Assembly: GCA_964016885.1 (NCBI GenBank) | Contig: OZ024744.1 | Location: forward strand, 125,736,001-125,800,000 | Origin: Eledone cirrhosa | Lineage: Eukaryota | DNA: 64,000 nt | Direction of reading: 5' to 3' | In this document: positions 1 to 64,000 of the stretch, one piece after another | Numbering within the stretch: the first letter of the stretch is position 1 | Layout: the number at the start of each line of letters is the position of its first letter | The notes under the pieces: generated by a model | The model's database searches: none | Seen by the model: only the letters and a program-made list of their open reading frames with translations | Told to the model about the DNA's origin: nothing | Program-made: the position numbers and the translations under genes

Positions 1-235
1 GGAAGCTTGTGCAGTGCACTCTACATGTAAATGGAGTCCCACTGAAGCAGGTAGAAAAGTTCATGTATCTCGAAGCTGTGTTCACGAGTGATGACAGAGA
101 CGGCAAAGGCACAACACACAACAGAAGAAAAGAACAATGACAATTATTATTATTATTATTATTATTATTATTTGTTTTATTAGTTTTATTATAATAAAAA
201 TTGTGCTGTTAGTTTGCTTGCTATACCATCATGTA

Positions 236-328
236 CCCTAACCCTAAACCTAACCCCAACTCCAACTCTGACCCTAAACCTAACCCCAACCCCAACCCCA
301 ACCCTAACCCTAACCCTAACCCTAACCC
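236..328. repeat. Interstitial telomere-like (CCCTAA)n with CCCCAA/ACCTAA variants
   Basis: Direct reading; copy at 36133-36219. Confidence 0.9.
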
Positions 329-1086
329 ACGATAGAAGACGTTCGTTACCGCTGGAGCAACGCAAATTACTCCTCGGTTGACGCCAAAAACGAACGCCTT
401 CTCGACGGCTAGCCGCATTTCGTGATCCGCCTTTCGATTGCGCTTCCGTCGCGGAAAAAGAATTGCCTTTATAGGCCGCCGCCGCCCGACCGGACCCACG
501 ATAGAAGACGTTCGTTACCGCTGGAGCAACGCAAATTACTCCTCGGTTGACGCCAAAAACGAACGCCTTCTCGACGGCTAGCCGCATTTCGTGATCCGCC
601 TTTCGATTGCGCTTCCGTCGCGGAAAAAGAATTGCCTTTATAGGCCGCCGCCGCCGCCCGACCGGACCCACGATAGAAGACGTTCGTTACCGCTGGAGCA
701 ACGCAAATTACTCCTCGGTTGACGCCAAAAACGAACGCCTTCTCGACGGCTAGCCGCATTTCGTGATCCGCCTTTCGATTGCGCTTCCGTCGCGGAAAAA
801 GAATTGCCTTTATAGGCCGCCGCCGCCGCCCGACCGGACCCACGATAGAAGACGTTCGTTACCGCTGGAGCAACGCAAATTACTCCTCGGTTGACGCCAA
901 AAACGAACGCCTTCTCGACGGCTAGCCGCATTTCGTGATCCGCCTTTCGATTGCGCTTCCGTCGCGGAAAAAGAATTGCCTTTATAGGCCGCCGCCGCCG
1001 CCCGACCGGACCCACGATAGAAGACGTTCGTTACCGCTGGAGCAACGCAAATTACTCCTCGGTTGACGCCAAAAACGAACGCCTTC
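326..1086. repeat. 169/172-bp GC-rich tandem array, 4 full copies plus a partial
   Basis: CCCACGATAGAAGACG starts at 326, 495, 667, 839, 1011; the 3-bp length difference is one GCC triplet. Confidence 0.95.
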
Positions 1087-1433
1087 CGGTTCGGGCGACG
1101 TAAAAGTCTGTAGCCTTTTCGACGATTATCCGCCTTCCGAACAACCGCCTTTCCGCCGTCACAGCAGTAGGTACTCGTCCGTCGTAATAGCCGTCATTTT
1201 AATGCAGGAGAAACGCCTAAATGCACTGCGATTGACGACGATCTACGACGCGCTTACTCTTCCTTGCTGCGACGAAGGTTTCGTTCGGCTTTTCGTCGTG
1301 GACCCGGTCAGGTCATGCCGCTGATCTCGCGTTGCGTCGTTACCGCTGGAGCAACGCAAATTACTCCTCGTTTAACGCCAACATCGAACGCGCTTCGGTT
1401 CTCGGTCGTCGTTGTTTTGTTTCGTGCGGAAGA
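1087..1433 (+). other. CpG-rich 5'ETS-like leader
   Basis: Lies directly upstream of the 18S-like start; contains a partial copy of the 172-bp motif near 1337-1392. Confidence 0.45.
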
Positions 1434-1617
1434 TACCTGGGTGATCCTGCCAGTAGTCATATGCTTGTCTCAAAGCTTAAGCCATGCAAGTGGAAGTTCA
1501 TGCCGTAAACGAAAATGGTGAAACCGCGAATGGCTCAGGAACCGGATCTAATCCTCGGGACCGTATTCCTCACCGCGAGGAGAGGATAACTGTGGCAATT
1601 CTAGAGCTAATACATGC
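1434..1617 (+). pseudogene. 18S rRNA 5' end, diverged and truncated
   Basis: TACCTGGGTGATCCTGCCAGTAGTCATATGCTTGTCTCAAAG..TTAAGCCATGCA, GTGAAACCGCGAATGGCTCA and GGATAACTGTGGCAATTCTAGAGCTAATACATGC occur in canonical 18S order. Confidence 0.93.
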
Positions 1618-1624
1618 AATTGAG

Positions 1625-4600
1625 ATCGGAGAGGGAGCGATCCGTCTGCTTGATTCCGATAACGAACGAGACATTCGTATCCGAAAGAACGTTTGTCTGG
1701 AAACTGGTGCAGTCAGTGAGTCGAAAAAAAAATATCTCGGTGGTAGTAGCAAATATTCGAACGAGACATTCGTATGCGAAAGAACGTTTGTCTGGAAGTG
1801 GCGATCCATGCCCGGTGGATAGTTGGTTCCGGGTTTTACTATGATTGTTGCAAAACAGAAACTTAAAGGGATTGACAGAATTTGCGATTCCGGAGAGGGG
1901 GCGATCCGTCTGCTTGATTCCGATAACGAACGAGACATTCGTATCCGAAAGAACGTTTGTCTGGAAACTGGTGAGTCAGTGAGTCGAAAAAAAAAATATC
2001 TCGGTGGTAGTAGCAAATATTCGAACGAGACATTCGTATGCGAAAGAACGTTTGTCGGTGGTAGTAGCAAATATTCGAACGAGACATTCGTATGCGAAAG
2101 AACGTTTGTCTGGAAGTGGCGATCCATGCCCGGTGGATAGTTGGTTCCGGGTTTTACTATGATTGTTGCAAAACAGAAACTTAAAGGGATTGACAGAATT
2201 TGCGATTCCGGAGAGGGGGCGATCCGTCTGCTTGATTCCGATAACGAACGAGACATTCGTATCCGAAAGAACGTTTGTCTGGAAACTGGTGAGTCAGTGA
2301 GTCGAAAAAAAAAATATCTCGGTGGTAGTAGCAAATATTCGAACGAGACATTCGTATGCGAAAGAAAAATATCTCGGTGGTAGTAGCAAATATTCGAACG
2401 AGACATTCGTATGCGAAAGAACGTTTGTCTGGAAGTGGCGATCCATGCCCGGTGGATAGTTGGTTCCGGGTTTTACTATGATTGTTGCAAAACAGAAACT
2501 TAAAGGGATTGACAGAATTTGCGATTCCAGAGAGAGGGCGATCCGTCTGCTTGATTCCGATAACGAACGAGACATTCGTATCCGAAAGAACGTTTGTCTG
2601 GAAACTGGTGAGTCAGTGAGTCGAAAAAAAAATATCTCGGTGGTAGTAGCAAATATTCGAACGAGACATTCGTATGCGAAAGAACGTTTGTCGGTGGTAG
2701 TAGCAAATATTCGAACGAGACATTCGTATGCGAAAGAACGTTTGTCTGGAAGTGGCGATCCATGCCCGGTGGATAGTTGGTTCCGGGTTTTACTATGATT
2801 GTTGCAAAACAGAAACTTAAAGGGATTGACAGAATTTGCGATTCCGGAGAGGGGGCGATCCGTCTGCTTGATTCCGATAACGAACGAGACATTCGTATCC
2901 GAAAGAACGTTTGTCTGGAAACTGGTGAGTCAGTGAGTCGAAAAAAAAAATATCTCGGTGGTAGTAGCAAATATTCGAACGAGACATTCGTATGCGAAAG
3001 AACGTTTGTCGGTGGTAGTAGCAAATATTCGAACGAGACATTCGTATGCGAAAGAACGTTTGTCTGGAAGTGGCGATCCATGCCCGGTGGATAGTTGGTT
3101 CCGGGTTTTACTATGATTGTTGCAAAACAGAAACTTAAAGGGATTGACAGAATTTGCGATTCCGGAGAGAGGGCGATCCGTCTGCTTGATTCCGATAACG
3201 AACGAGACATTCGTATCCGAGAGAACGTTTGTCTGGAAACTGGTGAGTCAGTGAGTCGAAAAAAAAATATCTCGGTGGTAGTAGCAAATATTCGAACGAG
3301 ACATTCGTATGCGAAAGAAAAATATCTCGGTGGTAGTAGCAAATATTCGAACGAGACATTCGTATGCGAAAGAACGTTTGTCTGGAAGTGGCGATCCATG
3401 CCCGGTGGATAGTTGGTTCCGGGTTTTACTATGATTGTTGCAAAACAGAAACTTAAAGGGATTGACAGAATTTGCCATTCCGGAGAGGGGGCGATCCGTC
3501 TGCTTGATTCCGATAACGAACGAGACATTCGTATCCGAAAGAACGTTTGTCTGGAAACTGGTGAGTCAGTGAGTCGAAAAAAAAATATCTCGGTGGTAGT
3601 AGCAAATATTCGTATGCGAAAGAAAAGATCTCGGTGGTAGTAGCAAATATTCGAACGAGACATTCGTAGGCGAAAGAAAAATATCTCGGTGGTAGTAGCA
3701 AATATTCGAACGAGACATTCGTATTCGAAAGAACGTTTGTCTGGAAGTTGCGATCCATGCCCGGTGGATAGTTGGTTCCGGGCTTTACTATGATTGTTGC
3801 AAAACAGAAACTTAAAGGGATTGACAGAATTTGCGATTCCGGAGAGGGGGCGATCCGTCTGCTTGATTTCGATAACGAACGAGACATTCGTATCCGAAAG
3901 AACGTTTGTCTGGAAACTGGTGAGTCAGTGAGTCGAAAAAAAAAATATCTCGGTGGTAGTAGCAAATATTCGAACGAGACATTCGTATGCGAAAGAACGT
4001 TTGTCGGTGGTAGTAGCAAATATTCGAACGAGACATTCGTATGCGAAAGAACGTTTGTCGGTGGTAGTAGCAAATATTCGAACGAGACATTCGTATGCGA
4101 AAGAACGTTTGTCTGGAAGTGGCGATCCATGCCCGGTGGATAGTTGGTTCCGGGTTTTACTATGATTGTTGCAAAACAGAAACTTAAAGGGATTGACAGA
4201 ATTTGCGATTCCAGAGAGAGGGCGATCCGTCTGCTTGATTCCGATAACGAACGAGACATTCGTATCCGAAAGAACGTTTGTCTGGAAGTGGCGATCCATG
4301 CTCGGTGGATAGTTGGTTCCGGGTTTTACTATGATTGTTGCAAAACAGAAACTTAAAGGGATTGACAGAATTTGCGATTCCGGAGAGGGGGCGATCCGTC
4401 TGCTTGATTCCGATAACGAACGAGACATTCGTATCCGAAAGAACGTTTGTCTGGAAACTGGTGAGTCAGTGAGTCGAAAAAAAAATATCTCGGTGGTAGT
4501 AGCAAATATTCGTATGCGAAAGAAAAGATCTCGGTGGTAGTAGCAAATATTCGAACGAGACATTCGTATGCGAAAGAAAAATATCTCGGTGGTAGTAGCA

Positions 4601-4735
4601 AATATTCGAACGAGACATTCGTATTCGAAAGAACGTTTGTCTGGAAGTTGCGATCCATGCCCGGTGGATAGTTGGTTCCGGGCTTTACTATGATTGTTGC
4701 AAAACAGAAACTTAAAGGAATTGACAGAATTTTCG
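1625..4735 (+). repeat. rRNA-derived satellite, modal monomer ~318 bp with 0-3 internal ~54-bp subrepeats
   Basis: TTGGTTCCGGG recurs at 1823, 2141, 2460, 2777, 3095, 3413, 3772, 4144, 4313, 4672; contains the 18S motifs GAAACTTAAAGG(G/A)ATTGAC, CGATTCCGGAGAGGG, TTCCGATAACGAACGAGAC and the 28S motif GGTGGTAGTAGCAAATATTC. Confidence 0.92.
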
Positions 4736-4754
4736 AATCGACATCAACTCGGCT

Positions 4755-5104
4755 ACGGCTATCCCGTCGAGTACGAGAGTATCGCGGGATCAGAGCAACG
4801 GTTTGCTAGGCTGACTCTGAGCGATAACGGCTGAACGCCTCCTCTAAGCCGGAACCCTAGCCGGACCCGAGTTGTTTTTCGACAAGCGTCTCGACCTTCT
4901 TAAGGCCCATGCCTTAGTTTGGCGATTGCCGTCCGTTCGCCGACGGCGGCAGCGTCAGCGGAAATGCCATTCTGTGACGACTACGACGATTCGTCGTCGT
5001 CGTCGTCCATTCGATTTCCTGAAAGAGATAGAGACTAAAGTGATCAAATTGTTCGGAGTTACGTGCTTAGTAGAGCAGCTACCACACTGCAATCTATTGA
5101 GAGT
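4755..5104 (+). pseudogene. 28S rRNA 3' end, diverged
   Basis: AGTACGAGAG (sarcin-ricin-loop-like) at 4770, GGCTGAACGCCTC..TAAGCC at ~4830-4850 and AGTAGAGCAGCTACCACACTGCAATCTATTGAGA at ~5069-5102, in canonical order. Confidence 0.85.
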
Positions 5105-5849
5105 TTTCTGACGAACGATACAATCCGCCCACGTGGCGCCAGAAAGGGAGAAGAAAAGAAAAGTTAGACGCCGCCGATCGATCGGTTCGTTGTTTTACGT
5201 GTACACAGCTTGTGTGTGTGTCTGTATGTGATACAAGCCGCCTATCCGTCTTCCAAGTAAGTTTTGTGTGTAGACTGCGGAAAGAAATCCAATCCGCCGT
5301 CTAGGCGGTTCTGCCGCCGACCCATACTTTTGCGAGTCGCTCCCGGGAAAGACAGGCGGCAAGACGGCGTGTATACACGACGCCTTCCGTCTTCCGCCTC
5401 GAACCCGGCAAACGTTCCTTTATTCGTCCACGCCTTCCCGCTTCGATCGCGAGAAAGTAATCAATCTGTTTTGTGTGTGTGTCTGTGTGTGATACAAATT
5501 TGTTTTCTTAATTTGATAACCATGAATTGTTTCAACACCGGCCCTTTTAAGGGCCACTTATATTTTCAATAATCAGTTTAAATGGGTTGCACCGTAGCCA
5601 CTTGGTAATACACTGCAAATCTCCCGTCAATCTATGAAGGTTTTGTAGTAGATTAGATCAAAACACAATCAGCAAGACAGTAATGGAATGAATAATATAA
5701 ACATTTGTTTATAATTAAAGCCTTAAGATGTCCCTCCCTCCCTCCCTTCCTTCCTTCCTTCCTTCCTTCCTTCCTTCCTTCCTTACGATATACACTTTAA
5801 TAACATTGAAACTTATTTAATAAGTTTAAATTTTAAACACTTTTTATTC

Positions 5850-5985
5850 AGACGTACCGCGATAAGTAACTAGATATGTTCTAACGAATAATCCGCGATG
5901 TGGCGAGGATTACCGCGATAGGAAATTAGATACGTTCCAAAGAAATATCCGCGAAAAGTGAACCGCGATATAGCGGGTTCACCAG
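5850..5985. mobile_element. Possible pogo/Tigger-like MITE end
   Basis: Repeated CCGCGA motifs ending in GAACCGCGATATAGCGGG; resemblance only. Confidence 0.3.
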
Positions 5986-5987
5986 CC

Positions 5988-6048
5988 AGTGTATTACTGG
6001 TACTTTATTTTATCGACCCCCATAAGGATGAAAGGCAAAGTTAACTGT
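5988..6048 (-). mobile_element. SINE fragment
   Basis: Reverse complement of the SINE core seen at 20243-20370. Confidence 0.75.
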
Positions 6049-6140
6049 GCAATAACAAAGGGAGATAACCTCGTCTTTTATTTTTTACGGAGTTATTTCC
6101 CTTTAAATTTTATCTATTACTTATGATGATACAATTTAAT

Positions 6141-6272
6141 CAGTTCTTAGCTGTCGAGACACTGCATCCTTTAAAACCTCCATGGAACAAGCTACCTGCA
6201 ACAGTTGTTAGCTGTCGAGACACTGCATCTTTTAAAACCTCCATGGAACAAACTACCTGCATCAGTTGTTAG
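6141..6272 (+). repeat. 61-bp tandem dimer derived from the CR1 ORF2 3' end
   Basis: Translates to WNKLPATVVSCRDTASFK, matching WNKLPASIVSCRDTASFK in the 22727-25492 ORF. Confidence 0.8.
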
Positions 6273-6275
6273 GGT

Positions 6276-6330
6276 CTGAGTTCAAATCACGCCGAGGAGG
6301 TTAACTTTGCCTTTCATCCTTACGGGGTCG
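6276..6330 (+). mobile_element. SINE fragment, truncated at GGGGTCG
   Basis: CTGAGTTCAAATCACGCCGAGG..TTAACTTTGCCTTTCATCC with a B-box-like GTTCAAATC. Confidence 0.75.
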
Positions 6331-6539
6331 GTCGGAAAACGAACCATTCCCGGTTCGCTTTCGAAGCGGGTTTCCGAAAACAGCGCTTCTCTCGACCGGG
6401 CCCGTCGTCCGCTCGGCGGTGGTTTTCATCGTCCCAGGCACGGCTAACAGGCGGAGACGGGACAAACGCGCGTGTTCCTTTTTTTATCAGCCGCAGCGCC
6501 GTTCGTATATATGCTTAGGTTGTTTTTTTTTTAAATATC

Positions 6540-6771
6540 CTAAGTTAAGTTGGGGCTAAGTTAAGTTGGGGCTAAGTTAAGTTGAGGTTAAGTTGAGTTG
6601 GGGTTAAGTTAAGTGGGGGTTAAGTTAAGCTGGGGTTAAGTTAAGTTGAGGTTAAGTTAAGTTGGGGTTAAGTCAAGTTGGGGTTAAGTTAAGTTGGGGT
6701 TAAGTTAGGTTGGGGTTAAGTTAGGTTGGGGTTAAGTTAAGTTGGGGTTAAGTTAGGTTGCGGTTAAGTTA
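6540..6771. repeat. 15-bp G-rich minisatellite (GGGGTTAAGTTAAGTT-like)
   Basis: Direct reading; copy at 42284-42515. Confidence 0.9.
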
Positions 6772-9700
6772 CATTCGCCGCCGGACTTCAGCTTCCTCAT
6801 TTAGCATGGGCAGTTTTTCTTGAAAATCACACCACACACAGCAAATGTGTGTCCGCACATGTACCAGTAATTACAGATCGATTCCGGTGAAAATTCACTG
6901 AAAACGGGCCATCCGGCCCTGTGCGTCGATCGTGGGCCGGCCGGATGTTGACGGATCGATGTGTAATTAGAAGTACATGTGCGGACACTCATTGGCTGTG
7001 CGTGGTATGCATTTCAGCAAGATATCTCCGTAACATCAAGAGTTATGGCTGTGGAGGCACACCTAGTCAAACGTAAACAAGGTCTGGAGCGTTTACGCTT
7101 CGCGATTTTGTTTACGTTTGACTAGGTGTGCCTCCACAGCCACAACTCTTGATGTTACGGAGATATCTTGCTGAAATGCATACCGCGCACAGCCAATGAG
7201 TGTCCGCACATGTACTTCTAATTACACATCGATCCGTCAACATCCGGCCGGCCCACGATCGACGCACAGGGCCGGATGGCCCGTTTTCAGTGAATTTTCA
7301 CCGGAATCGATCTGTAATTACTGGTACATGTGCGGAGACACATTTGCTGTGTGTGGTGTGATTTTCAAGAAAAACTGCCCATGCTAAATGAGGAAGCTGA
7401 AGTCCGCCGGCGAATGGTGTGCTTCGAAGAAAACTAATTCGAAAATGACCGTTTGCAGGCGGAGTAACCTTTTCGATCGTGGGCCAGCCGCCCGTGGTGG
7501 GATCCATCTGTAATTACTGGTACATGTGCGGACATACATTTGCTGTGTGTGGTGTGATTTTCAAGAAGAACTGCCCATGCTAAATGAGGAAGCTGAAGTC
7601 CGCCGGCGAATGGTGTGCTTCGAAGAAAACTAATTCGAAAATGACCGTTTGCAGGCGGGGTAACCTTTTCGATCGTGGGCCAGCCGCCCGTGGTGGGATC
7701 CATCTGTAATTACTGGTACATGTGCGGACACACATTTGCTGTGTGTGGTGTGATTTTCGAGAAAGACTGCCCATGCTAAATGAGGAAGCTGAAGTCCGCC
7801 GGCGAATGGTGTGCTTCGAAGAAAACTAATTCGAAAATGACTATTTGCCGGCGGAATCACCTTTTCGGTCCTGGTCCGGCCGGATCTTGCCGGATCGATC
7901 GGAAATTTGTGGACCATGTTCGGAAGGCCATTGTGCATGTGTGGTGAAAAAAATTTGTGTCGAAATCTTCTCGGAAAATAACGGATCGCCGGCGGAGATT
8001 GCCATTTCGATCGTGGGCCGGCCGGATCTTGTCGGATCGATTCGGACATATGTGCATCGTGTTCGCAAGGCCCTTGTCTATGTGTGGTGTGATTTTCATA
8101 AAGAAATTCCGAAAAACCCAGTTTTAAATCTGATTTCGCCAAAGAATTTTGGCTATCAGATCGGGTTGAAAGGTATGGTTTCAGGTCGATCTGAAAGTCT
8201 AAAATGGAATTCACTCGGTTAGCTAACTATTGATATTTCGGAGATATCTTTCTGAAAATCACACCACACACTCCCAATGAGTGTCTGCACATGTACCAGT
8301 AATTACAGATGGATCCCACCACGGGCGGCCGGCCCACGATCGAAAAGGTTACTCCGAAGCACACCATTCGCCGGCGGAATTCATTTAGCATGGGCAGTTT
8401 TTCTCGAAAATCACACCACACACAGCCAATGAGTGTCCGCACATGTACCAGTAATTACAGATGGATCCCACCACGGGCGGCTGGCCCACGATCGAAAAGG
8501 TTACTCCGCCTGCAAACGGTCATTTTCGAATTCGTTTTCTTCGAAGCACACGATTCGCCGGCGGACTTCAGCTGCCTCATTTAGCATGGGCAGTTTTTCT
8601 CGAAAATCACACCACACACAGCAAATGTGTGTCCGCACATGTACCAGTAATTACAGATCGATTCCGGTGAAAATTCACTGAAAACGGGCCATTCGGCCCT
8701 GTGCGTCGATCGTGGGCCGGCCGGATGTTGACGGATCGATGTGTAATTAGAAGTACATGTGCGGACACTCATTGGCTGTGCGTGGTATGCATTTCAGCAA
8801 GATATCTCCGTAACATCAAGAGTTATGGCTGTGGAGGCACACCTAGTCAAACGTAAACAAGCTCTGGAGCGTATACGCTTCGCGATTTTGTTTACGTTTG
8901 ACTAGGTGTGCCTCCACAGCCACAACTCTTGATGTTACGGAGATATCTTGCTGAAATGCATACCACGCACAGCCAATGAGTGTCCGCACATGTACTTCTA
9001 ATTACACATCGATCCGTCAACATCCGGCCGGCCCACGATCGACGCACAGGGCCGGATGGCCCGTTTGCAGTGAATTTTCACCGGAATCGATCTGTAATTA
9101 CTGGTACATGTGCGGACACACATTTGCTGTGTGTGGTGTGATTTTCACGAAAAACTGCCCATGCTAAATGAGGAAGCTGAAGTCCGCCGGCGAATGGTGT
9201 GCTTCGAAGAAAACTAATTCGAAAATGACCGTTTGCAGGCGGAGTAACCTTTTCGATCGTGGGCCAGCCGCCCGTGGTGGGATACATCTGTAATTACTGG
9301 TACATGTGCGGACACACATTTGCTGTGTGTGGTGTGATTTTCGAGAAAGACTGCCCATGCTAAATGAGGAAGCTGAAGTCCGCCGGCGAATGGTGTGCTT
9401 CGAAGAAAACTAATTCGAAAATGACTATTTGCCGGCGGAATCACCTTTTCGGTCCTGGTCCGGCCGGATCTTGCCGGATCGATCGGAAATTTGTGGACCA
9501 TGTTCGGAAGGCCATTGTGCATGTGTGGTGAAAAAAATTTGTGTCGAAATCTTCTCGGAAAATAACGGATCGCCGGCGGAGATTGCCATTTCGATCGTGG
9601 GCCGGCCGGATCTTGTCGGATCGATTCGGACATATGTGCATCGTGTTCGCAAGGCCCTTGTCTATGTGTGGTGTGATTTTCATAAAGAAATTCCGAAAAA

Positions 9701-13382: not shown

Positions 13383-13424
13383 TTAAAATACTCACCGTTT
13401 GATTTGGAAAAACTTAAAATGCTC

Positions 13425-13457
13425 ACATATATATGTGTATGTATTTATCTATGCATG

Positions 13458-13503
<46 letters not shown>

Positions 13504-13981: not shown

Positions 13982-14014
<33 letters not shown>

Positions 14015-14045
14015 AGTATTTATCTATACATGTATGTATATATAA
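13425..14045. repeat. (TA)n-rich compound microsatellite
   Basis: Direct reading. Confidence 0.9.
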
Positions 14046-14129
14046 AATATTGTCATGTTTACAAAAATATTTTTCTAATATCGTGTTTAATATTTTATAT
14101 TGTCGTCTGCTTCTCTTCTCACGTGGTTA

Positions 14130-51500: not shown

Positions 51501-52680
51501 ATGACTATTTGCCGGCGGAATCACCTTTTCGGTCCTGGTCCGGCCGGATCTTGCCGGATCGATCGGAAATTTGTGGACCATGTTCGGAAGGCCATTGTGC
51601 ATGTGTGGTGAAAAAAATTTGTGTCGAAATCTTCTCGGAAAATAACGGATCGCCGGCGGAGATTGCCATTTCGATCGTGGGCCGGCCGGATCTTGTCGGA
51701 TCGATTCGGACATATGTGCATCGTGTTCGCAAGGCCCTTGTCTATGTGTGGTGTGATTTTCATAAAGAAATTCCGAAAAACCCAGTTTTAAATCTGATTT
51801 CGCCAAAGAATTTTGGGTATCAGATCGGGTTGAAAGGTATGGTTTCAGGTCGATCTGAAAGTGTAAAATGGAATTCACTCGGTTAGCTAACTATTGATAT
51901 ATCGGAGATATCTTTCTGAAAATCACACCACACACTCCCAATGAGTGTCTGCACATGTACCAGTAATTACAGATGGATCCCACCACGGGCGGCCGGCCCA
52001 CGATCGAAAAGGTTACTCCGAAGCACACCATTCGCCGGCGGAATTCATTTAGCATGGGCAGTTTTTCTCGAAAATCACACCACACACAGCCAATGAGTGT
52101 CCGCACATGTACCAGTAATTACAGATGGATCCCACCACGGGCGGCTGGCCCACGATCGAAAAGGTTACTCCGCCTGCAAACGGTCATTTTCGAATTAGTT
52201 TTCTTCGAAGCACACCATTCGCCGGCGGACTTCAGCTTCCTCATTTAGCATGGGCAGTTTTTCTTGAAAATCACACCACACACAGCAAATGTGTGTCCGC
52301 ACATGTACCAGTAATTACAGATCGATTCCGGTGAAAATTCACTGAAAACGGGCCATTCGGCCCTGTGCGTCGATCGTGGGCCGGCCGGATGTTGACGGAT
52401 CGATGTGTAATTAGAAGTACATGTGCGGACACTCATTGGCTGTGCGTGGTATGCATTTCACTAAGATATCTCCGTAACATCAAGAGTTATGGCTGTGGAG
52501 GCACACCTAGTCAAACGTAAACAAGGTCTGGAGCGTTTACGCTTCGCGATTTTGTTTACGTTTGACTAGGTGTGCCTCCACAGCGACAACTCTTGATGTT
52601 ACGGAGATATCTTGCTGAAATTCATACCACGCACAGCCAATGAGTGTCCGCACATGTACCTGTAATTACACATCGATCCG
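42516..52680. repeat. Palindrome array (unit 2), 7 centres
   Basis: Centres at 42838, 44618, 46202, 47786, 49370, 50954, 52538. Confidence 0.95.
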
Positions 52681-52822
52681 ACGACGGACAGAGTATTCGG
52701 TTTATTTTCTTGACATATTTCTTTACATATTGTCCAGGCATGCACTTTTTCCATGATTAGTTCTGTTGACGGCCCGCTTTCCAAAATACCTTATCCTGTG
52801 CAACGCCGGGTACCACTGCTAG
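52681..52822 (+). mobile_element. Helitron-type 3' terminus contiguous with the palindrome array
   Basis: CCTGTGCAACGCCGGG-TACCACTG-CTAG|T at 52795-52823; homologous over ~55 bp to 18391-18450 (-). Confidence 0.7.
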
Positions 52823-53041
52823 TATATATATGTGTATGTATATATATATATATATATTGGTAAACGGAATAGAAAATTGTGACAAATTGTTCACAGTGAA
52901 AAATAGTTTAATTAGGAATAAGTGATAATTAGTAATAGTATTGGTTAGTATTAAGTTTTGGTTTTAAGTTTTACCGGTTGCGCATTTCTAATGCTTTTCA
53001 AAAATAATTTTGAGATAGAGCGTCCGTGATGTTTGCTCTGA

Positions 53042-53085
<44 letters not shown>

Positions 53086-53232
53086 AACAGTAGAAAGGAA
53101 AAAGATTTTTTCAGTAGAAATTGCTGAAGAGATTCTTTCAGTGTAATTTCAAAACATTAATTTATTTATAAAGTGGATATTTCCACATTTAATAATGGCA
53201 CTGGGTTCAGCATTATATACATTGTCAATTGT

Positions 53233-53510
53233 GGATTCTACTTTTGGCACAAGGGCTGCAATTATCCAGTACATTACTGGTACTTTATTATTTATACAAA
53301 TAATAATTGTTTCTACTTTTGGCACAAGGGCAGCAATTACCCAGTACATTACTGGTACTTTATTATTTATACAAATAATAATTGTTTCTACTTTAGGCAC
53401 AAGGTCAGCAATTACCCAGTACATTACTGGTACTTTATTATTTATACAAATAATAATTGTTTCTACTTTAGGCACAAGGTCAGCAAATACCCCAGTACTT
53501 TATTTTATCG
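53233..53510. repeat. 75-bp SINE-derived tandem repeat, unit 2 only
   Basis: GGCACAAGG at 53246, 53321, 53396, 53471; runs into a minus-strand SINE core. Confidence 0.85.
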
Positions 53511-56500
53511 ACCCCGTAAGGATGAAAGAAAAGTTAACCTCAACGGGATTTGAACTCAGTCTGTAAAGGGAGGTAACTGCTGGATTAATTTGGTTAATTA
53601 AGTTAACAGAAATTATGAACCGGTTTCTACAGAGCCTTCTGGACATTTAACCCTTTAGCATTTAAACCAGCCATACCTAGCCAGAATACTCTCACATCTT
53701 TCTGTTCAAACCAGCCATAACTGGCCACTCATACTGACGTTAAGGTATTGTTCTCAATATAAATAATATCAAAATCTCATAGATTCGATATTATATGAGA
53801 TAATTATGTAAGATAAAGCCTTTACCACAAAAATACAATAGTATATATAGAGTAATAAAAATGCTAAAGGGTAAAAGTAGCTTATTATTTTGTGAGCTCT
53901 TGCTACTTATTGCTCTTGTGCATCAAGAACATACACAGCTTACATTTTGTTGCTAATCTCACTGAGATCCAACTACATCTCTTGTTTATCCATAGTTTGG
54001 AATTTCTACCTACTCCTTTCCTTTAGAATGATCAAGGCCATTTTCTTGTGGGGATCTAGGCCCTGTTTTCCTTTCTATTTTGCCAAGTTATCTTACATCA
54101 CTTTCATTCTAGACCATGCTTCCAGGTTTGGAATTTCTCCTCTAATTTTACCACAGATTAAGTGACAAGGGTTCAATCATGTGCATACAGGAGTTCCCAT
54201 GGACAGCCAGTAATATGTAATAGCCTGCAGGATGATAATAAACAGAAGAGGGTTAATTACAGAGCCCTGATAGAGGGTTAATAACAGAGCCCTGATAGAC
54301 TTGTTCACTCAACTCCTCACTATAGCCATCATTACTTTTAACCTTACTGACTGCTCCTCCATACATGGCTTTTACTGCTCTCACAAGCCACTCATATACC
54401 CCTAGTTTTCTAAGTTATACACCAGATTAGGGAAGGGGGAAGTCTCACAGAAGCTCTCTCTGGGTCAACAAATGCCAAGTAGAGGGGCTTATTTTAGCTA
54501 GGTACTACTCTTGCAGTTGCCACACAAGGAAGAGGACATCAGTGGTACTTTTACCTGGCACAAATCCAAACTTCATCTCATCTAGGTTAACTTGGTCCCT
54601 AATCAGCTGTGTTATAAATCTAACACCTTCATGAAGTGGTCCATCTAATATCTCTATAGTTTTCTAGCTCTAGTACATCTCCTTTGCCCTTGTAGCAGTT
54701 GATGATGATGATACTACACCATTTATTTGGTATGACACCATTTTGTATTACATGCTGTACGATACCAGTGGTTAAGATGTGACCCACCATCCCAGATACT
54801 TTCAGTATCTCAGCAACTATCACCAATGGACAAGATACTTTCTCTGTCTTCATATCCTTAATTACCTTACTTCATATCCTTAATTACCTTACTGCTTACT
54901 TGTATGGCTGGACCCTCTGTTGGGCCCACTTTCCGTAGACTATCTTCCTCCCATGCATTCTCCTCATTCAGTAATCTTTCATAAAGGCATTTCCATGTTA
55001 CAAAGGTTGGCTGAAAAGTTCATAGACTATCAATGATAGCATGATGCTAGAGCTGTGAAATCTTGCCTGCATTAATTTCAACTCTTCTTATTAATAACTG
55101 CATTGTTTCCTTCCAGGGACTATGTTGAAAAATAAACCTCATTTGGTCATTCCATGAGTGTATCTTGGTCTGCCTATGAACTTTTCAGCTGACCCTATTC
55201 AGCATCAGTGAGCCCAAATGCCCCATTATCATCCTGGACACACTTTACCCCAACATCACAATTTGCCCTCACACACTGCCTCACAATCCTGAACATCTCA
55301 TGTATTTCATCCTCACATCATAAAACCAACTGAAATTATATATTCTCTGCTTCCCTCCTTGCAAAGAATACTTCTTGCCTAGCTTCCTGTAGTGTACCCT
55401 CCAGCTGCCTCCATTCTGCCATTATTCCATGCCTGTCTCTTGGCCTTAACTGTCTCATCTACCCTAGTGTTTCACCACCAAGATACTCTCCTCTCTGAAG
55501 CCCTGCTCCAGCCACAGATCTAGTTTGACACCTTCAGCAAAGGTTCTTTAAGGAACTCCCACTGTTCCCCTATATTGTATGTTTCTATTTGTTCTTCCTT
55601 ACTGTTGTAAAGATCAAACAAAATATCTCTAAATTTGGAACTGGCTGAGGGGTCCTTTAACTTCCATATCCTTCTCCTCCAAGTTGCCCTCAGTCTTCAA
55701 GTTCATCTAAGTCTATGAAATCACTAACTACTGGGTTATGTTGGGAGGTGCATTCTTCCCCAGGGGGTGGGGATTGTGTGTTTACAAATGTCAATATCTC
55801 ATCTTCTGGTGAGGATAAAAATCTGACTGGCATGCTCCTCTGACCAATAGGTGTTGAAGTGGTTGTCGGGTAAACGTTAAGACCCTCTGATATACATATA
55901 TATATATATACTAGCAGTGGTACCCGGCGTTGCACGGGATAACGTATTTCGGAACGCGGGCCGCCATCTTCCACTTCAGCCGGTCGCCCTAAAGTGTTGG
56001 CTATTCAGTCTACTTGAGGCCAGTTGGTGAGGGGGGGGGGTAAAGCTTTCAGTGTGCTACTACCCTCACGGTCAAATAGAAAGGGAGAGGAAGAAAAGTC
56101 AGCGTTAATATCGTGCTACACGTTTGAAAGGTTGGATGACCTTAGAGTTCACCAGGGTGGGGGGTTCTAAAAGTATCTATCTTGGTATTTTATCTTAGAA
56201 GTAATCATTACAGAGTGTACTGGGTGTATTTTAGTGGGCAGTAATTCCATAAAGAACACAGTATAATCTGTGGACACAAGCCTTGCAGTGTGATTACAGG
56301 CAGGTTAATGGGAAAGATAGATTATATATGTGACATGATGTACATGAGAAGTGAGGACACAGACCACACATGAAATAGATTCCTACAACTGTCAGGGAGG
56401 CTCCCTAGAATTACAGATGACATATTTCAATATCTCGGTGATCAAGTTAGCAGTGGAGGAAGAATCTCTAAAAGTGTAATACCCAGGATAAGGACAGGCT

Positions 56501-58124
56501 GGAAGAAGTTTAGAGTACTGTTCCATCTGTTGACAACAAAGGGCTTCTCTCTCAGAATGGAGGCTAGACTGCTTGATACTTATGTGTGGTCTGCAATCTA
56601 CACCCCAGCCATGCCCCTTCCACTACCACTCCTTAGCTATTTCTCTCCATTAATACTCCTCACATTTCAAGCAGTTTTCTCATCTCAATGAAAGAAAAAT
56701 ATTGGGCTCAAGAGAAGTCTTCAGTTATGCCATGGTGTGGCAACCTCCCTAGGGTTGGGCAGAGTGTAAATGAGAGTGAAATTAGGTATGAGAGGGATCA
56801 TATGCAGTATACAAGAGAGTAGATTACATTGGTATGGTCATGTGATGGGTATAAAGGATGACAGCTGTATAAAAATGTGCTGGGCAATCAAAGTTGATGG
56901 AAGTTATGAAGGCGGAAGACCCAGGATGACCTGGGATGAGGTGATAAAAGATGACTTTGCACAATTGCAACTCTCAAAGACAATGACACAGGATAGAGAT
57001 CTTGAGATGTATGCAGCAATACAGAAGGCCTGCTTTCCAATGTGCACGGACTCAAACATACATCTAGTAGGCCCCTCCTAACCACTATACTCCTTTCCAA
57101 ACTCCCACACTCCCACTTCTGTACACACCACCTTTAGACTGTAAAGTGGTAGTGTACAAGTCACAACAAAAGCACCCAGTCCACTCTGTAAAGTTGATGT
57201 GTTGGTGTCATAACAAAAGGCACTCAGTCCACTCTGTAAAGAGGTTGTGTAAGTGTCACAACAAAGACATCTAGTCCACACTGTAAAGTGGTCATGTAGG
57301 TGTCACAACAAAAAGTACCAGTCATTATTGTAAAGTGGTTGTATAGGTGTCATAACAAAAAGCACCCAGTCGACACTGTAAAGTGGTTGTGTAGGTGTCA
57401 GAACCAAAAGCACCCAGTCCACACTGTAAAGTGGTTGTGTAGGTGTCATGACAAAAAGCACTCAGTCTACATTGTAATGAGGTTGTGTAGGTGTCATGAC
57501 AAAAAGCACCTAGTCCACACTGTAAAGTGGTCATGCAGGTGTCATGACAAAAAGCACCCAGTCCTCACTGTAAAGTGGTCATGTAGGTGTCATGTCAAAA
57601 AGCACCCAGTCCACCCTGTAAAGTGGTTGTGTAGGTGTCATGATAAAAAGCACCCAGTCCACACAGTAAAGTGGTCATGTAGGTGTCACTAAAAAAGCAC
57701 CCAGTCTACTCTGTAAAGTGGTCATGTAGGTGTCATGACAAATAGCACCCAGTCCACCCTGTAAAGTGTTCATGTAGGTGTCATGACGGAGAGTAACCAG
57801 TCCACAATGTAAAGTAGCCATGTAGCTGTCACAACAAAGCACCCAGTCCACACTGTAAAGTGGTCATGTAGGTGTCATTTCAAAAAGCACCCAGGTCCAT
57901 GGCTTGGCCTGCTAACCGACGCTATACCCAAGTCGGTCGCCATGCTTTCCAGCATAGAGTTACGTCTCTTTATGGTCTGAGTTCAAATCACGCCGAGGTT
58001 AACTTTGCCTTTCATCCTTACGGGGTCGATAAAATAAAGCACCAGTAATGTACTGGGGTCGATTTAATCGACTTTCCCCTCCTCTGCCAAATGACACACA
58101 CATGCATGGTTCGGGGGAACCTAC

Positions 58125-58188
<64 letters not shown>

Positions 58189-59067
58189 GTAGGTCACTGG
58201 TTGAGTCGGTATTAACCACAGTAACTAAGGTACTCAATACATATTAGATATAGGTGTCTTTCTAATTGCTGGCCTTGTTCATAAGGTATACACAAGTATG
58301 ATGTGTGTCTGTTTAACTGTACGTGTGAAAACATCGCGAAATTGCGCCTTTTAATATTTGAATATAAACAGTTAAAAAATAATTATTTTAGTAATTTTTA
58401 AATATCGATAATGTGTATATAAATATTAGAAATCAATTTAATTAGTTCAGTAACATTACTCGGAGTTAAGATAAACCTTCATTTGAAGAAATTCGAGATT
58501 TGACCAAATAAATAGATTATGTGATCAATAAAAAAAATATGTATACCCGCTTGGACGACGGGTTGCAGACAGTCAGGCATACAGACACATATTTTAAAGC
58601 GTGCGACGTTAAAAGTCTTACTCTCTCTCTTTTTAGATAGATAGACTTAATTAAAGCAGTTTCACTCTCTCTATATTTCATCAGCTCTCTCTCTCTTAAA
58701 TTGAAAGATTCATTAAGGCTGAAATAATCTAAACAGTAACATCATTTTTCGCCAGCTCTAGCTTGCGTCCAGAGATATACACACACATATATATATATTT
58801 TTTTTGTTATCGAGTTGAGCTTTGCCAAGCATAGAATTCCAAATTTGACCATCTCCACTGAAAATGTTCGTGAAATAGTCTTTAAGAAGCAATTTAATTT
58901 TTTCCAACTGAAACTGTAAGTATTTTAAAATTTATTTCAACATGGTCTTAAAAGATTGTTGGCTTTTTTTAAATTCATAACTATTTACTATGAAATATAA
59001 ATTATTAAATCCAATTTATTTGATAACCATGATTTGATTTTATAATTACCTGAATCACGTTAACATG

Positions 59068-59108
<41 letters not shown>

Positions 59109-59366
59109 GTGTGTGTATATATATATATATATAATAATTGTTTCTACGTTACGCAGTGTATTACTGGTACTGTATTTTACGATATTAAATATTAAATATT
59201 AACTATTAGATATTAAATATTAAATATTAGATATTAGATATTAAATATTAAATATTAAATATGATATCCCTGAAATATATATAATGAAATAAATATGGTT
59301 TTATAAATGTAATTTCCATTTGTTTAATATCAAATATATATATATATATATATGTATTTATGTATA

Positions 59367-59426
<60 letters not shown>

Positions 59427-59651
59427 GCAGACACAGACACAGAATATCGTATATATCACACACACACAATTAAGACTTGACGTGTTGCAGACAGCCAGAC
59501 ATACAGAGAGATATTTTAAAGCGTGCGACCTTACATTTCTTACTCTTTCTCTTATCAAAAGAGAAAGAGTAATGCTAACACTTACGTCTACTTCACGCTC
59601 TCTTGAACCGTTACAGAAATTGCATCACATCTAATTATAACTTTGTACGTT

Positions 59652-59653
59652 TG

Positions 59654-59728
<75 letters not shown>

Positions 59729-59734
59729 GCACAC

Positions 59735-59765
<31 letters not shown>

Positions 59766-59768
59766 CAC

Positions 59769-59805
<37 letters not shown>

Positions 59806-59873
59806 CGTGTGTGTGTGTATATATATACACACACACGTGTATATATATATATATATATACACACACACGTGTG

Positions 59874-59906
<33 letters not shown>

Positions 59907-59928
59907 GTGTGTGTATATATATATATAT
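59652..59928. repeat. Compound microsatellite at the CR1-free site
   Basis: Flanks match 21900-21950 and 25975-26000 with no LINE between them. Confidence 0.9.
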
Positions 59929-60271
59929 CTGTCTCTCTCCCTGTCTCTCACTCTGCCTCTATCCCCCCTCTCTCTCTCTGTCTCTCCCCCCCCCTCTCTC
60001 TCTCTCTAGTAGTAGAGAGAGAGAGAGATATAAACGTATAACCCTAAACCTAACCCATCTCTCTCACTCTCTCTCTCCCCCTCTCTCTCTCTTCTCTCTC
60101 TCACTCTCCCTCTACCCCTCCCTCTCTCTATTTCTCTCTCTCTCTCTCCAGTAGTAGAGAGAGACAAAGAGAGAGAGAGATATAAACGTATAACCCTAAC
60201 CAAACCCTAACCCAACTCTAACCCAACCCTAACCCTAACCCCAACCCTAACTCTAACCTAACCCTAACCCA

Positions 60272-60302
<31 letters not shown>

Positions 60303-60609
60303 ACCCCCTCTCTCTCTCTCTAGTAGTAGAGAGAGAGACAAAGAGAGAGAGAGAGATATAAACGTATAACCCTAACCCATCTCTCTCTCTCTATTTCTCC
60401 CCCCCTCTCTCTCTCTCTAGTAGTAGAGAGAGAGAGACAAAGAGAGAGAGAGATATAAACGTATAACCCTAACCCAACCCTAACCTCTCTCTCTCCCCCC
60501 TCTCTCTCTCTATTCCCCCCTCTCTCTCTCTCTCTAGTAGTAGAGAGAGAGACAGAGAGAGAGAGAGACAGAGATAGATATAAACGTATAACCCTAACCC
60601 AACCCTAAC

Positions 60610-60644
<35 letters not shown>

Positions 60645-62615
60645 TTTTTAACATTGTTTTGTTTTTCTTTTCTTTTCTTATTCAGATGACAAACGGCAGA
60701 GGATACAACAGAAGAAAAGAACAAAGATAATTATTATTATTATTACTATTATTATTTGTTTTATTATAATCAAAATATGCTGTTAGTTAGATCTGCATTG
60801 CGTACATTTTATATAATTTATGCCAGTTCCTTTTCTGCATATCGAACATGGCCATTTCCCTGACGGAATAGAGTTTTGTCCTCTTTCGTGACACAAAGTA
60901 CAGCCAGCGGCATCATTGCGGACAGACTTAATCCCGAATTGCACTGACACACTGCCTCGCAATACGGAACACCGCACGTCTTTGATCTTCTTCCCGTCGA
61001 TCAGCCTCCTTGCCATGCTAAGTACACCTGACGTCTAGCTTCTCTCTTAGCGGCGGCTTTATATTCTTCTCTACTCCCACTAATTTTCCAAGCATTCCAT
61101 GCTAGCCTTTAGTCTCCAATGGCCCGATCTACCGTGCTGTCCCACCACCATGTCACTCTCTGTCTGGTTGGAACTCTGATCCAGCCACAAGTTTAATCAG
61201 TAGCCTGCAATAAGTTGTCACATAAGAAAATCGAGTTCTCATGTATGTCATACGACTGTGAATCGTCTTCTTTTTCGTCATACACATATTGAAGGGCTTT
61301 CCTAAATTTCTATTTTAGTGAAATCTCTTTTAGCTTCCAGACCTTTCTTTTTTCCACATCTTCCTGTATGTCTCAATCATACCTGGAGCTGTCCAACATG
61401 ACCATTGAAATCCCCTGCTAGCATAACGATGTCTCCGTCCTGTCATTGTGGCTGTTTGTAAAAATTGCTTGTAAATGAAGTCTTTCTTTTCTTTACCTAG
61501 CAGAAGCAATTAACACTAACCCAACTGTAACACTAACCCTAACACTAACTTATGCAGGCCTAGGTAAAGACAAGAAAGATAAAACAAGGAGTGATGCTTC
61601 TTGAATTTTGTGATGCAAGTGTTTTAACCATTTGCAAAACCAACTTCCACAAACCTGCCTCACTGCCGCCTAATAACCTACAAATCAGGCAAGCACAGAA
61701 GCCGGATTTCTCGGTAGTTAGGCAGCGAGACAGACAGATGGGGTGTGAAGTACCAGGGTGTGCCCCGGGGAGGAATGTTTCCCACAGCGTGGGTTGGTTG
61801 TTGGTGATGTCTCGGTTATCTTGAGACGGAGTGAGACGTGCAGGAATACTCTCACGGAATCGCCAAATGAGGTTTATTTTTCAACATAGTCCCTGGAATG
61901 AAACAATGTGGTTATTAAGAAGAATTGAAATTAATGTAAGATTTCACAGATCTATGATCAATCCTTCACAGTCAGCTTACAAAGTTTTCAGCCAAACCTT
62001 GTGTATTTCCAACATTTCAAACCCTATCTAGGACTACATTATCTAATGTACAGTACAGTAGTTAGTATTAGTGGCTATCAGACATAGTGTATCTAAATGC
62101 AACATTTTTAACATTGTTTTTTTTTTCTTTTCTTTTCTTTTCTTATTCAGATGACAGACGGCAGAGGATACAATAGAAGAAAAGAACAATGATAATTATT
62201 ATTATTATTATTGTTGTTATTCCTTGAATCTCAGTCATTGATGTTGGTTAACTGGAAAGTCCGTTGGAATGAATATCAAGCCACTACCTGCAGCCTCAGA
62301 TATTCAGGACGTATCGGAGGGTTCTTGCTGTTCCAAGCAAGCATGCCTTTTGAAGCGTTCCAAAAAGCGTGAAGGGGCCGATTTTCTTTAACCATCCCTG
62401 GAAACTTTTGGAGATGGACAAAAAACTGGAACACAATAGACCTGACCTGGTGGTTGTGGACAAAGAAAAAAGATCGTGTCTGATTGTGGATGTGGCCTGC
62501 CCGTTCAACACGAGAGTGCAAGAGAAGGAGAGGGAGAAAATTAACCGATACCAGGACCTAAAGTGGGAGGTGAAAAGGATTTGGAACTTCCATGAAGTCA
62601 AAGTGATCCCGATTG

Positions 62616-62656
<41 letters not shown>

Positions 62657-64000
62657 TATTATTTGTTTTATTATAATCAAAATATGCTGTTAGTTAGATC
62701 TGCATTGTGTACATTTTATATAATTTATGCCAGTTCCTTTTCTACATATCGAACATGGCCATTTCCCTGACGGAATAGAGTTTTGTCCTCTTTTCTACTC
62801 ATCAACACTCATTCGTGACACAAAGTACAGCCAGCGGCATCATTGCGGACAGACTTAATCCTGATTTGCACTGACACACTGCCTCGCAATACGGAACACC
62901 GCACGTCTTTGATCTTCTTCCCGTCGATCAGCCTCCTTGCCATGCAAAGTACACCTGACGTCTAGCTTCTCTCTTAGCGGCGGCGGCTGTATATTCTTCT
63001 CTACTCCCACTAATTTTCCAAGCATTCCATGCTAGTCTTTAGTCTCCAATGGCCCGATCTACAGTTTCTGTCTCAACTCGTCTATGCTTGGTCGTTCCCG
63101 CACATTGACATTGCACATCCAACGGAGCATGCTTGCTTCATTTCTCTCCAGCCGTCGCATGTCCTCTGCAGTTGCTGCCCGTGTCTCACTACCATGCAGC
63201 ATCGCGCATCTAAACCTGGCCCTTACCCTAACCCCAACCTCTTTGGTTTTCGTTTTCTCGACGGCTAGCCGCATTTCGTGATCCGCCTTTCGATTGCGCT
63301 TCCGTCGCGGCAAAAGAATTGCCTTTCCAGACCGCCGTCGCCCGACCGGACCCATGATAGAAGACGTTCGTTACCGTTGGAGCAACGCAAATTACTCCTC
63401 GGTTGACGCCAAAAACGAACGCCTTCCCGCCTCGCGCCGCCTTCTCCTCGCCGACCCTCGGCCTCGACGATTAGCCACTTTCCGTCACAGCAGTAGATAC
63501 GCGTCCGTCGTAATAGCCGTCATTTTAACGCAGGAGAAACGCCTAATTGCCCTGCACCGCGTTTGACGGCGATCTACGACGGCGACGATGCGCGCACTCT
63601 TCCTTGCTGCGACGAAGGTTTCGGCTTTTCGTCGTGGACCCGGTCAGGTCATGCCGCTGACCTCGCGTTACGGCGACGCGAGAAGACGTTCGTTACCGCT
63701 GGAGCAACGCAAATTACTCCTCGGTTGACGCCAAAAACGAACGCCTCGCGCCGCCGCTTCCTCCTCGGCCTCGACGATTAGCCGCTTTCCGTCACAGCAG
63801 TAGATACGCGTCCATCGTAATAGCCGTCATTTTAACGCAGGAGAAACGCCTTGACGACGATATACGACGGGTCGACGACGCGCGCACTCTTTCTGCTGCG
63901 ACGAAGGTTTTGGCTTTTCGTTGTGGACCCGGTCGGGTCATGCCTCTGACCTCGCGTTGCGTCGCCACCGCCGCGGCGGGCTTGGGTTTAGCCGTAGCTA

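Follow-up and report, generated by a model that had tools for sequence, protein, structure and literature searches.

Ribosomal DNA (rDNA) sequence can be reused as a repeat family, as in the rDNA-derived satellite of tomato and in satellites derived from 5S rDNA; in rDNA-derived satellites and in SINE28, the source is a spacer or one contiguous piece of rRNA. Both rDNA pseudogenes in high copy number and arrays of degraded rDNA are already known. About 50% of the 45S rDNA copies of Cycas revoluta are pseudogenes, the grasshopper Podisma also has rDNA pseudogenes (PMC10462631, PMC1790724), and marmoset chromosome 6 carries a degraded rDNA array, the giraffe being cited as having a similar one (PMC13041921).

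Here we analysed a 64-kb stretch of Eledone cirrhosa DNA, referred to below as the window. Our main reading, to which we give a probability of roughly 70%, is that it holds a hollowed, non-functional rDNA gene together with spacer and transposon debris, present in high copy number, that this gene is likely long dead, and that unequal exchange has likely amplified the unit again, and homogenised it, in the recent past as a tandem macrosatellite. As in the Cycas and Podisma pseudogenes, dead rDNA is as numerous as functional rDNA and has drifted towards A+T, and the Podisma copies are apparently also in tandem; whereas those are described as heterogeneous copies with point mutations, here there is one homogenised family (0.11%) in which nearly all coding sequence is lost and a satellite stands in its place (PMC10462631, PMC1790724). 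The marmoset report likewise describes a separate array of non-functional rDNA units with retroelement insertions (PMC13041921), and the SINE28 report the reuse of rDNA sequence as a repeat family (PMC10946416). Long units, conserved dead elements and nested satellites are found in the functional 45S rDNA of Hepialus humuli and Inachis io; however, those units have rRNA genes, whereas here most of the 18S and 28S and all of the 5.8S are missing (PMC10257491). The gene-derived macrosatellites D4Z4, DXZ4 and RNU2 similarly consist of tandem units of several kilobases that are highly identical and vary in number, but the present unit has about ten times the length of those of DXZ4 (3 kb) and D4Z4 (3.3 kb), is derived from rDNA and contains several nested arrays.

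The window covers ~1.8 units (29,811-35,894 is seen once only):

1..35894, plus strand: unit 1 of the ~36-kb repeat, its phase being that of the window start
35895..64000, plus strand: unit 2, incomplete, stopping at the equivalent of 29,810

There is no N in the window, no tRNA genes were found within its 64 kb, and the tandem order is that of the assembly at one head-to-tail junction. The earlier note on this DNA had described two near-identical units at an offset of 35894, and the pair is indeed head to tail, with 14 substitutions and 12 indels over 12,315 aligned bases in seven non-array segments (0.11%). The offset is 35,894 at the start and 33,954 to 37,724 further on, following array and insertion differences. 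Divergence is as low in the rDNA-derived core as in the LINE relics, whose reported near-identity was also confirmed (1 substitution in 3,492 bases at 16,123-19,614). Recounting gave the same array differences as had been claimed, namely, 4.4 versus 5.4 copies of the 172-bp repeat (for 4 versus 5), 10 versus 8 anchor motifs in the rRNA satellite (with two motifs), 4 versus 7 palindrome centres and four additional copies of the 48-bp repeat (12 versus 16). The view that the units differ by array turnover stands as far as these counts go but is incomplete, as a LINE insertion and a swap of non-homologous segments (2.7 kb at 13,380-16,122 in unit 1 versus 1 kb at 52,681-53,642 in unit 2), both absent from that note, also distinguish them.

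The core of the unit runs from an 18S 5' end through a satellite of ~320-bp monomers to a 28S 3' end, with flanking regions that are likely rDNA spacers:

235..328 (copy 36,132-36,219), plus strand: (TAACCC)-like tract, immediately 5' of the 172-bp array
325..1086 (36,216-37,146 in unit 2), plus strand: 172-bp array, 4.4 copies (5.4 in unit 2), likely a spacer subrepeat, judged by position only
1087..1432 (copy 37,147-37,502), plus strand: putative 5' external spacer, likely so by position
1433..1620 (copy about 37,503-37,690), plus strand: 18S rRNA 5' end, about 188 nt
1620..4736, plus strand: rRNA-scrap satellite of unit 1, 10 monomers of about 170-370 bp
37690..40479, plus strand: rRNA-scrap satellite of unit 2, 8 monomers
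4743..5125 (copy 40,486-40,868), plus strand: 28S rRNA 3' end, decayed type (Rfam model 3005-3399)
5126..5466, plus strand: putative, and likely, 3' spacer
29074..29899 (partial copy 63,255-64,000), plus strand: older copy of the 172-bp/spacer region, about 80% identical

The 172-bp motif is seen again at 1,337-1,396, just upstream of the 18S piece, and 5126..5466 is partly common to a second rDNA type, while 5,248-5,466 resembles a separate, higher-copy repeat. Rfam matches are limited to 18S model positions 57-388 (weak) and 28S model positions 3005-3399, and none to 5.8S was found in the unit. A functional 45S rDNA would have complete 18S, 5.8S and 28S genes in order and be identical to the main rRNA type; here the gene bodies are gone, and the 28S piece differs from a second 28S type by at least 14 substitutions and two indels over 389 bp. 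The lesions are those of a pseudogene: besides the loss of most of the gene, there are changes at the conserved columns 5,091 and 5,122, a 3-nt duplication at 4,838 and a loss of 33 nt at a 7-bp direct repeat (4,937-4,943). On the 3' side, both the 28S piece and its flank have second-type variants at matching depth, as is found for a pseudogene that arose from the animal's own rDNA with its flanks and not as a processed retrocopy. Derivation from rDNA is a more apt description of the unit than the previous one, by which it was merely organised like rDNA.

Within the satellite, a 54-bp inner repeat occurs 1-3 times in most monomers. Pieces of the monomer were mapped with rDNA references from metagenomes: among 103 loci, 16 had 5.5 kb or more downstream and were retained, 12 of them also serving for the 28S end; a lineage-specific 28S motif had 0 matches in metagenome contigs, and the 18S start motif had 0 in viral contigs. 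Four pieces were placed (18S ~385-402, 18S ~1305-1343, a 28S core and 18S ~1112-1163), at the same map positions in several eukaryotic rDNA loci; they are non-collinear, and each lies on the sense strand. At their join, the first two 18S pieces share a 5-nt overlap in the references, and one 18S piece and the 28S piece join through a shared 9-nt end. About 45% of the monomer has no rRNA assignment with these distant references, modules x, y, z and w mapping to rRNA no better than the minus-strand control, and folding of the monomer is no more stable than that of shuffled sequences (z -1.03). In a contig of a public run, X9, the 28S module of the satellite runs on into other sequence, which we take to be upstream 28S. 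Coding pieces of 18S and 28S that are not adjacent are combined in the monomer, which remains between an 18S start and a 28S end, unlike rDNA-derived satellites and SINE28, and our literature search found no precedent for a scrambled 18S/28S satellite.

Sense-strand, non-collinear pieces from mature-rRNA cores, in a unit that contains an intact young LINE, could point to an RNA-level origin of the monomer, in which the frame is DNA derived but a LINE reverse transcriptase (RT) switched from one rRNA fragment to another, making a chimeric cDNA that patched a break in the rDNA and was amplified afterwards. We consider this unlikely, as direct-repeat recombination in a tandem array likewise yields same-strand, non-collinear joins, distant references can detect conserved cores only, and the ends of the satellite show neither a poly(A) tail nor a target-site duplication.

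The abundance of the core was assessed from the word depth of contigs in public run X1, possibly the assembly's own sample, for 4,372-6,540 (2.2 kb) only; contig depth is not a copy number, and the single-locus baseline of about 4-11 comes from a handful of contigs taken as single-locus; the four other X1 contigs listed have depths of 3.8-10.1. The contig across the satellite-28S junction, with 41 nt on the satellite side, has a depth of 4,015, about 1.1 times that of the second 28S type (3,570-3,700). Further window-type contigs have depths of 3,979, 3,985 and 3,938, the last from the non-rRNA flank at 6,022-6,175. A depth of about 4,000 against about 4-11 (X1, 4,372-6,540 only), with units 0.11% apart, is that of many near-identical copies, as in a macrosatellite. 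The presence of only two copies, 0.11% apart and with allele-like structural differences, would also fit one locus whose two haplotypes were joined in tandem by the assembler; this is, however, extremely improbable, with window-type X1 contigs about 400-1,000 times deeper than other listed contigs. The earlier note had argued against a trivial duplication, and the depth check supports it, contradicting single-locus depth in X1 for 4,372-6,540. Depth covers only this stretch; for the remaining 34 kb, it is the identity of the two units that speaks for amplification. High copy number might be confined to the rDNA-derived core (about 6-13 kb), with the 36-kb repeat having arisen by local duplication into two copies, or from two members of a large family having been joined in the wrong order, given that depth covers 2.2 kb, that a single junction is seen and that ordered assembly is difficult for families of hundreds of 99.9% identical copies. 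The depth of 3,938 in the non-rRNA flank, the equally low divergence in core and LINE relics and the lack of an N gap make this quite improbable.

Divergence between the two 28S types is at least 3.6% (14 substitutions or more), and 7 of the 14 listed differences are G/C to A/T changes in the window type, with 2 in the opposite direction. The second type has the reference letter at 5,091 (12/12 references), 5,122 (11/12) and 5,105 (8/12) and lacks the 3-nt duplication; the counter-case is 4,857, where the references side with the window letter (10/12) and not with the second type. The second type is likely the functional one. The runs compared were those with a share of at least 0.3 and, of the 17 runs below that share, X9 only. 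X9 (same species label, another sample, library type unknown) has only the second type at 4,838 and 4,857 and has no contig for the window-type 28S or for 6,051-6,123. In X24, a second sample from another study, whose library is restriction biased, the satellite receives about 70-110 reads and the unit-specific 6,051-6,123 about 57, and about 90-99% of the 28S reads are, with the same bias, of the second type. X4 (0.43 share) was considered as a relative with conserved rDNA and rejected, because the window type is present in it at a depth of 2, with 0-1 differences, and SINE sequence is very scarce; its signal is likely trace contamination and so gives no evidence of cross-species conservation.

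One further segment bears on the relationship between the two types:

6336..6509: segment with a variant at second-rDNA-type depth (about 3,700 in X1; 2,909 in X9), likely native rDNA spacer

Together with the 3' flank, which also has variants at functional-type depth, this segment would be expected if the dead units lay within the true nucleolus organizer region (NOR) and shared the whole long spacer, including transposon relics, with functional units, their homogeneity being due to concerted evolution with these; conserved dead transposons are known in rDNA spacers of Hepialus humuli (PMC10257491). We think there is only a slim chance of this, since 6,051-6,123 is seen at window-type depth alone (4,008, one X1 contig) and since 28S pieces at least 3.6% apart indicate that the two types are not homogenised together.

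Outside the core, the unit holds further arrays and insertions:

5535..5579 (copy 41,279-41,323), plus strand: orphan histone 3' stem-loop
6541..6771 and 42,285-42,515, plus strand: 16-bp array, 14.4 copies in each unit
6772..13379: 1,584-bp array of unit 1, 4 palindrome centres
42516..52680: 1,584-bp palindrome array of unit 2, 7 centres, ending mid-palindrome
13380..16122: unit-1-specific segment with microsatellites and a decayed retroelement fragment
52681..53642: unit-2-specific segment with a 75-bp x3.5 repeat and SINE-like pieces
19615..20184 (57,138-57,899 in unit 2), plus strand: 48-bp array, 12 copies (16 in unit 2)
22580..25703, minus strand: young LINE insertion, 3.12 kb, unit 1 only
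31962..33282: 53-bp (10 copies) and 72/142-bp arrays, in the portion without a second copy in the window

By eye, no histone frame is recognisable upstream of the stem-loop. The 1,584-bp monomer examined holds a palindrome with 480-nt arms that are 98% complementary and a 27-nt spacer. The first monomers are alike across units (2-3 differences), and the internal ones are patchworks shuffled between units, one pair having 0-1 differences. The LINE has an open 957-amino-acid endonuclease and RT frame (22,727-25,600) with the Pfam domains Exo_endo_phos and RVT_1, starts about 100 nt before the frame, ends in an (ATT)n tail and sits in a (TA)n palindromic minisatellite. We take it to be CR1-like from its named matches (stork, turtle and Hydra at 31-37%), and an APE endonuclease and RT frame, a short-repeat 3' tail and 5' truncation, as in CR1-type elements, are all present. 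Five short frames in decayed retroelement pieces had no Pfam match.

In one sample, the read depth of the broken gene is close to that of the rRNA genes that are likely the working ones, so that the dead array was likely re-amplified hundreds of times, and 28S types at least 3.6% apart beside units 0.11% apart indicate an old death and a recent homogenisation. The earlier proposal, in which a non-functional unit was amplified recently or evolved in concert and its nested arrays turned over faster, fits the lost gene bodies, a dead 28S at ~4,000 beside ~3,600 and the shuffled monomers; its wording as rDNA-like gives way to derivation from rDNA. For the favoured history of a dead rDNA unit amplified anew, we propose that DNA-level microhomology-mediated deletions and template switches in an rDNA array may have joined rRNA scraps into one monomer, which would then have grown in tandem; next, the dead gene would have decayed. 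Unequal crossing-over or the re-integration of circles could later have raised a ~36-kb block to a few hundred copies, the 1-kb palindromes probably helping as break sites, and nested arrays, deletions and the LINE insertion would have formed subtypes since. This explanation requires no function. A selfish defective rDNA is conceivable but improbable; it would have kept its Pol I promoter and spacers, been replicated and counted like rDNA, risen to parity with the working genes and been transcribed into scrambled 18S/28S multimers first joined by RT template jumping, and it would behave as a natural pseudo-NOR, titrating Pol I factors and differing hugely from one individual to another.

The locus separates homogenisation from function, as a unit without rRNA product appears to be 99.9% uniform at rDNA-scale copies beside a distinct functional array, and it provides a natural control for models of concerted evolution and of rDNA copy counting. 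Provided that amplification extends to the whole unit, a few hundred copies of it would amount to ~10-20 Mb. Conserved pieces of the 18S and 28S cores, whose depth corresponds to tens of thousands of repeats, are likely to distort rDNA copy-number estimates, rDNA fluorescence in situ hybridization and rRNA-based phylogeny or metabarcoding in this animal.

Comparison of the window with itself revealed two head-to-tail units, the second incomplete, with a start offset of 35,894, and no N anywhere in the sequence. This bears out the layout described in the earlier note, and its counts of the internal arrays are likewise upheld: 4.4 copies of the 172-bp array in unit 1 versus 5.4 in unit 2, 10 versus 8 rRNA-satellite anchors, 4 versus 7 palindrome centres, and 12 versus 16 copies of the 48-bp array. 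Over 12,315 aligned bases in seven non-array segments, the units differ by 14 substitutions and 12 indels, the latter mostly in microsatellites. Two larger differences go beyond that note: a LINE found only in unit 1 and a swapped segment, with unrelated sequences at the equivalent place (13,380-16,122 in unit 1 and 52,681-53,642 in unit 2). The 1,584-bp arrays stop at different phases before this segment, and homology resumes after it at a 3-nt word common to both units; a short MITE-like element with terminal inverted repeats (16,123-16,355) marks the rejoining point. An earlier duplication has left an 80%-identical copy of the spacer region at 29,074-29,899.

Young LINE of unit 1
22,580-25,703, minus strand: LINE of 3.12 kb, in unit 1 only, with an (ATT)n tail and an open frame of 957 aa for endonuclease and RT

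The LINE lies in a (TA)n palindromic minisatellite, and microsatellite targeting is possible. Its closest database relatives, at 53-83% identity, are records without a name, and its intact endonuclease and RT frame overlaps the end of another frame upstream. A 61-bp duplication at 6,141-6,272, which resembles the 3' region of this element (86-89% similarity) and has a summed depth of about 1 million in the public sequencing run X1, belongs to an abundant family having its 3' end in common with the LINE.

Each unit has three Rfam hits: one to the 3' end of 28S (model 3005-3399), a weak one to the 18S 5' end and one to a histone stem-loop. No match to 5.8S was obtained in the window. The stem-loop is an orphan located 400 bp 3' of the 28S end (5,535-5,579 and 41,279-41,323), with no recognizable histone frame upstream, and is possibly a relic of histone-rDNA linkage. 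Further rRNA pieces were mapped by comparison with 16 long rDNA loci of eukaryotes taken from metagenomes.

Pieces mapped to the reference rDNA loci (the satellite pieces consistently so)
1,433-1,620: 18S piece
18S about 385-402, sense: satellite piece 1
18S about 1305-1343, sense: satellite piece 2
28S core segment, sense: satellite piece 3
18S about 1112-1163, sense: satellite piece 4

The four monomer pieces are all in the sense strand, in an order that is not that of rRNA, and about 45% of the monomer showed no mapping to these references above control. In the references, the first two 18S pieces overlap by a 5-nt word; the second 18S piece and the 28S piece have the same 9-nt ending followed by the same module, which accounts for a variable 54-bp inner repeat. 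Folding of the monomer was no better than that of shuffles. These shared words at the joins, together with a loss bounded by a 7-bp repeat, argue for a microhomology-driven origin, and assembly of the monomers by RT is the less probable, though conceivable, route. At 4,770-4,785, the sarcin-ricin loop region differs from the Rfam consensus and nearby stems carry compensated changes, so the source rRNA itself was highly divergent.

Twenty-four runs are listed for 1,087-6,540, none of them on record as RNA, and three from one sample contain about 0.7 of the words. Four (X1, X4, X9 and X24) were compared in detail over 4,372-6,540. In X1, one contig at depth 4,015 spans the satellite-28S junction, and contigs of the window type, the decayed 28S of the units, have depths of 3,979 (4,910-5,090), 3,985 (5,061-5,372) and 3,938 (6,022-6,175). 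A second 28S type, at 3,570-3,700, differs from it by at least 14 substitutions in 389 bp, is without the 3-nt duplication at 4,838 and has 33 extra bases at the 7-bp direct repeat. This type differs from the reference letter at 4,857. Since its letter is that of most references at three conserved columns (12/12, 11/12 and 8/12) and it is the only type found in X9 at 4,838 and 4,857, it is likely to be the functional rDNA. Baseline depth (3.8-10.1) came from the remaining four X1 contigs listed, which are dispersed repeats that have diverged and were assumed to be single loci. Read as a within-run ratio, contig depth being no copy number, the dead type stands at about 1.1 times the functional type and several hundred times single-locus depth. 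For 4,372-6,540, this contradicts a single locus with two haplotypes joined in tandem, which the earlier note had kept as an option and which now seems highly improbable. Residence of the dead units inside the NOR, with a spacer in common with functional units, is improbable.

X24 consists of raw RAD reads from another sample and study. Its coverage, about 70-110 on the satellite and about 57 on the unit-specific stretch 6,051-6,123, is skewed by restriction cut sites, with 4,026 reads beginning at 4,908. At 6,080, unit 2's letter is found in the deep X1 contig and in 54 of 55 X24 reads; unit 1 is therefore a minor variant. We consider it doubtful that the core only was amplified. In X9, which has the same species label, the second type reaches about 2,900-10,700 and the satellite 114, with no window-type 28S within 4,372-6,540. 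These depths do not scale with those of X1 across repeats, which makes X9 unlikely to be ordinary whole-genome DNA; RNA, open chromatin or an animal without the array may lie behind it. The mere trace of window sequence in X4 is likely contamination. Variants of the 3' spacer segment 5,248-5,466 occur in X1 at depth 46,000-81,000 and may represent either a distinct repeat of higher copy number or a subrepeat in the spacer of the functional unit. A variant of the GC-rich segment 6,336-6,509, which may be a spacer promoter or transcribed spacer piece, is at functional-rDNA depth in X1 and at 2,909 in X9.

The 1,584-bp monomers (6,772-13,379 and 42,516-52,680) contain subrepeats of ~196 bp, in both orientations, on either side of a palindrome whose arms, in the monomer examined, are 480 nt long and 98% complementary; a foldback element and rDNA spacer are candidate origins. 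Edge monomers match between the units and internal ones are patchworks, indicating ongoing unequal exchange. Telomere-like (TAACCC) tracts, which may mark healed breaks or belong to a transposon, lie directly 5' of the 172-bp array (235-328) and within a repeat of ~97 bp whose copy number varies (26,094-26,416 and 60,191-60,511).

Several related systems are already known. Cycas and Podisma have high-copy rDNA pseudogenes (PMC10462631, PMC1790724), and the marmoset has an rDNA array that is degraded and laden with retroelements (PMC13041921). Spacers of rDNA can be laden with transposons (PMC10257491), and rRNA has given rise to repeats, SINE28 among them (PMC10946416). The style of the SINEs in the window suggests an octopus-like taxon. 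Among the top matches in the open-access literature, there was no report of this family in cephalopods or of a scrambled 18S and 28S satellite inside a homogenised dead unit; comparable examples may be entered in the taxon table of PMC10462631.

Taken together, the repeat is real, high-copy and rDNA-derived, and its unit is most likely non-functional. In the most likely scenario (probability roughly 0.7), deletions and template switches driven by microhomology would have hollowed one unit of an rDNA array and joined scraps into a monomer, which then expanded. The hollow unit would have decayed until it differed by at least 3.6% from the working type (7 G/C-to-A/T changes versus 2 in reverse, both small numbers), and the ~36-kb block would later have been amplified and homogenised to 0.11%, with the 480-nt-arm palindrome as a plausible source of breaks.
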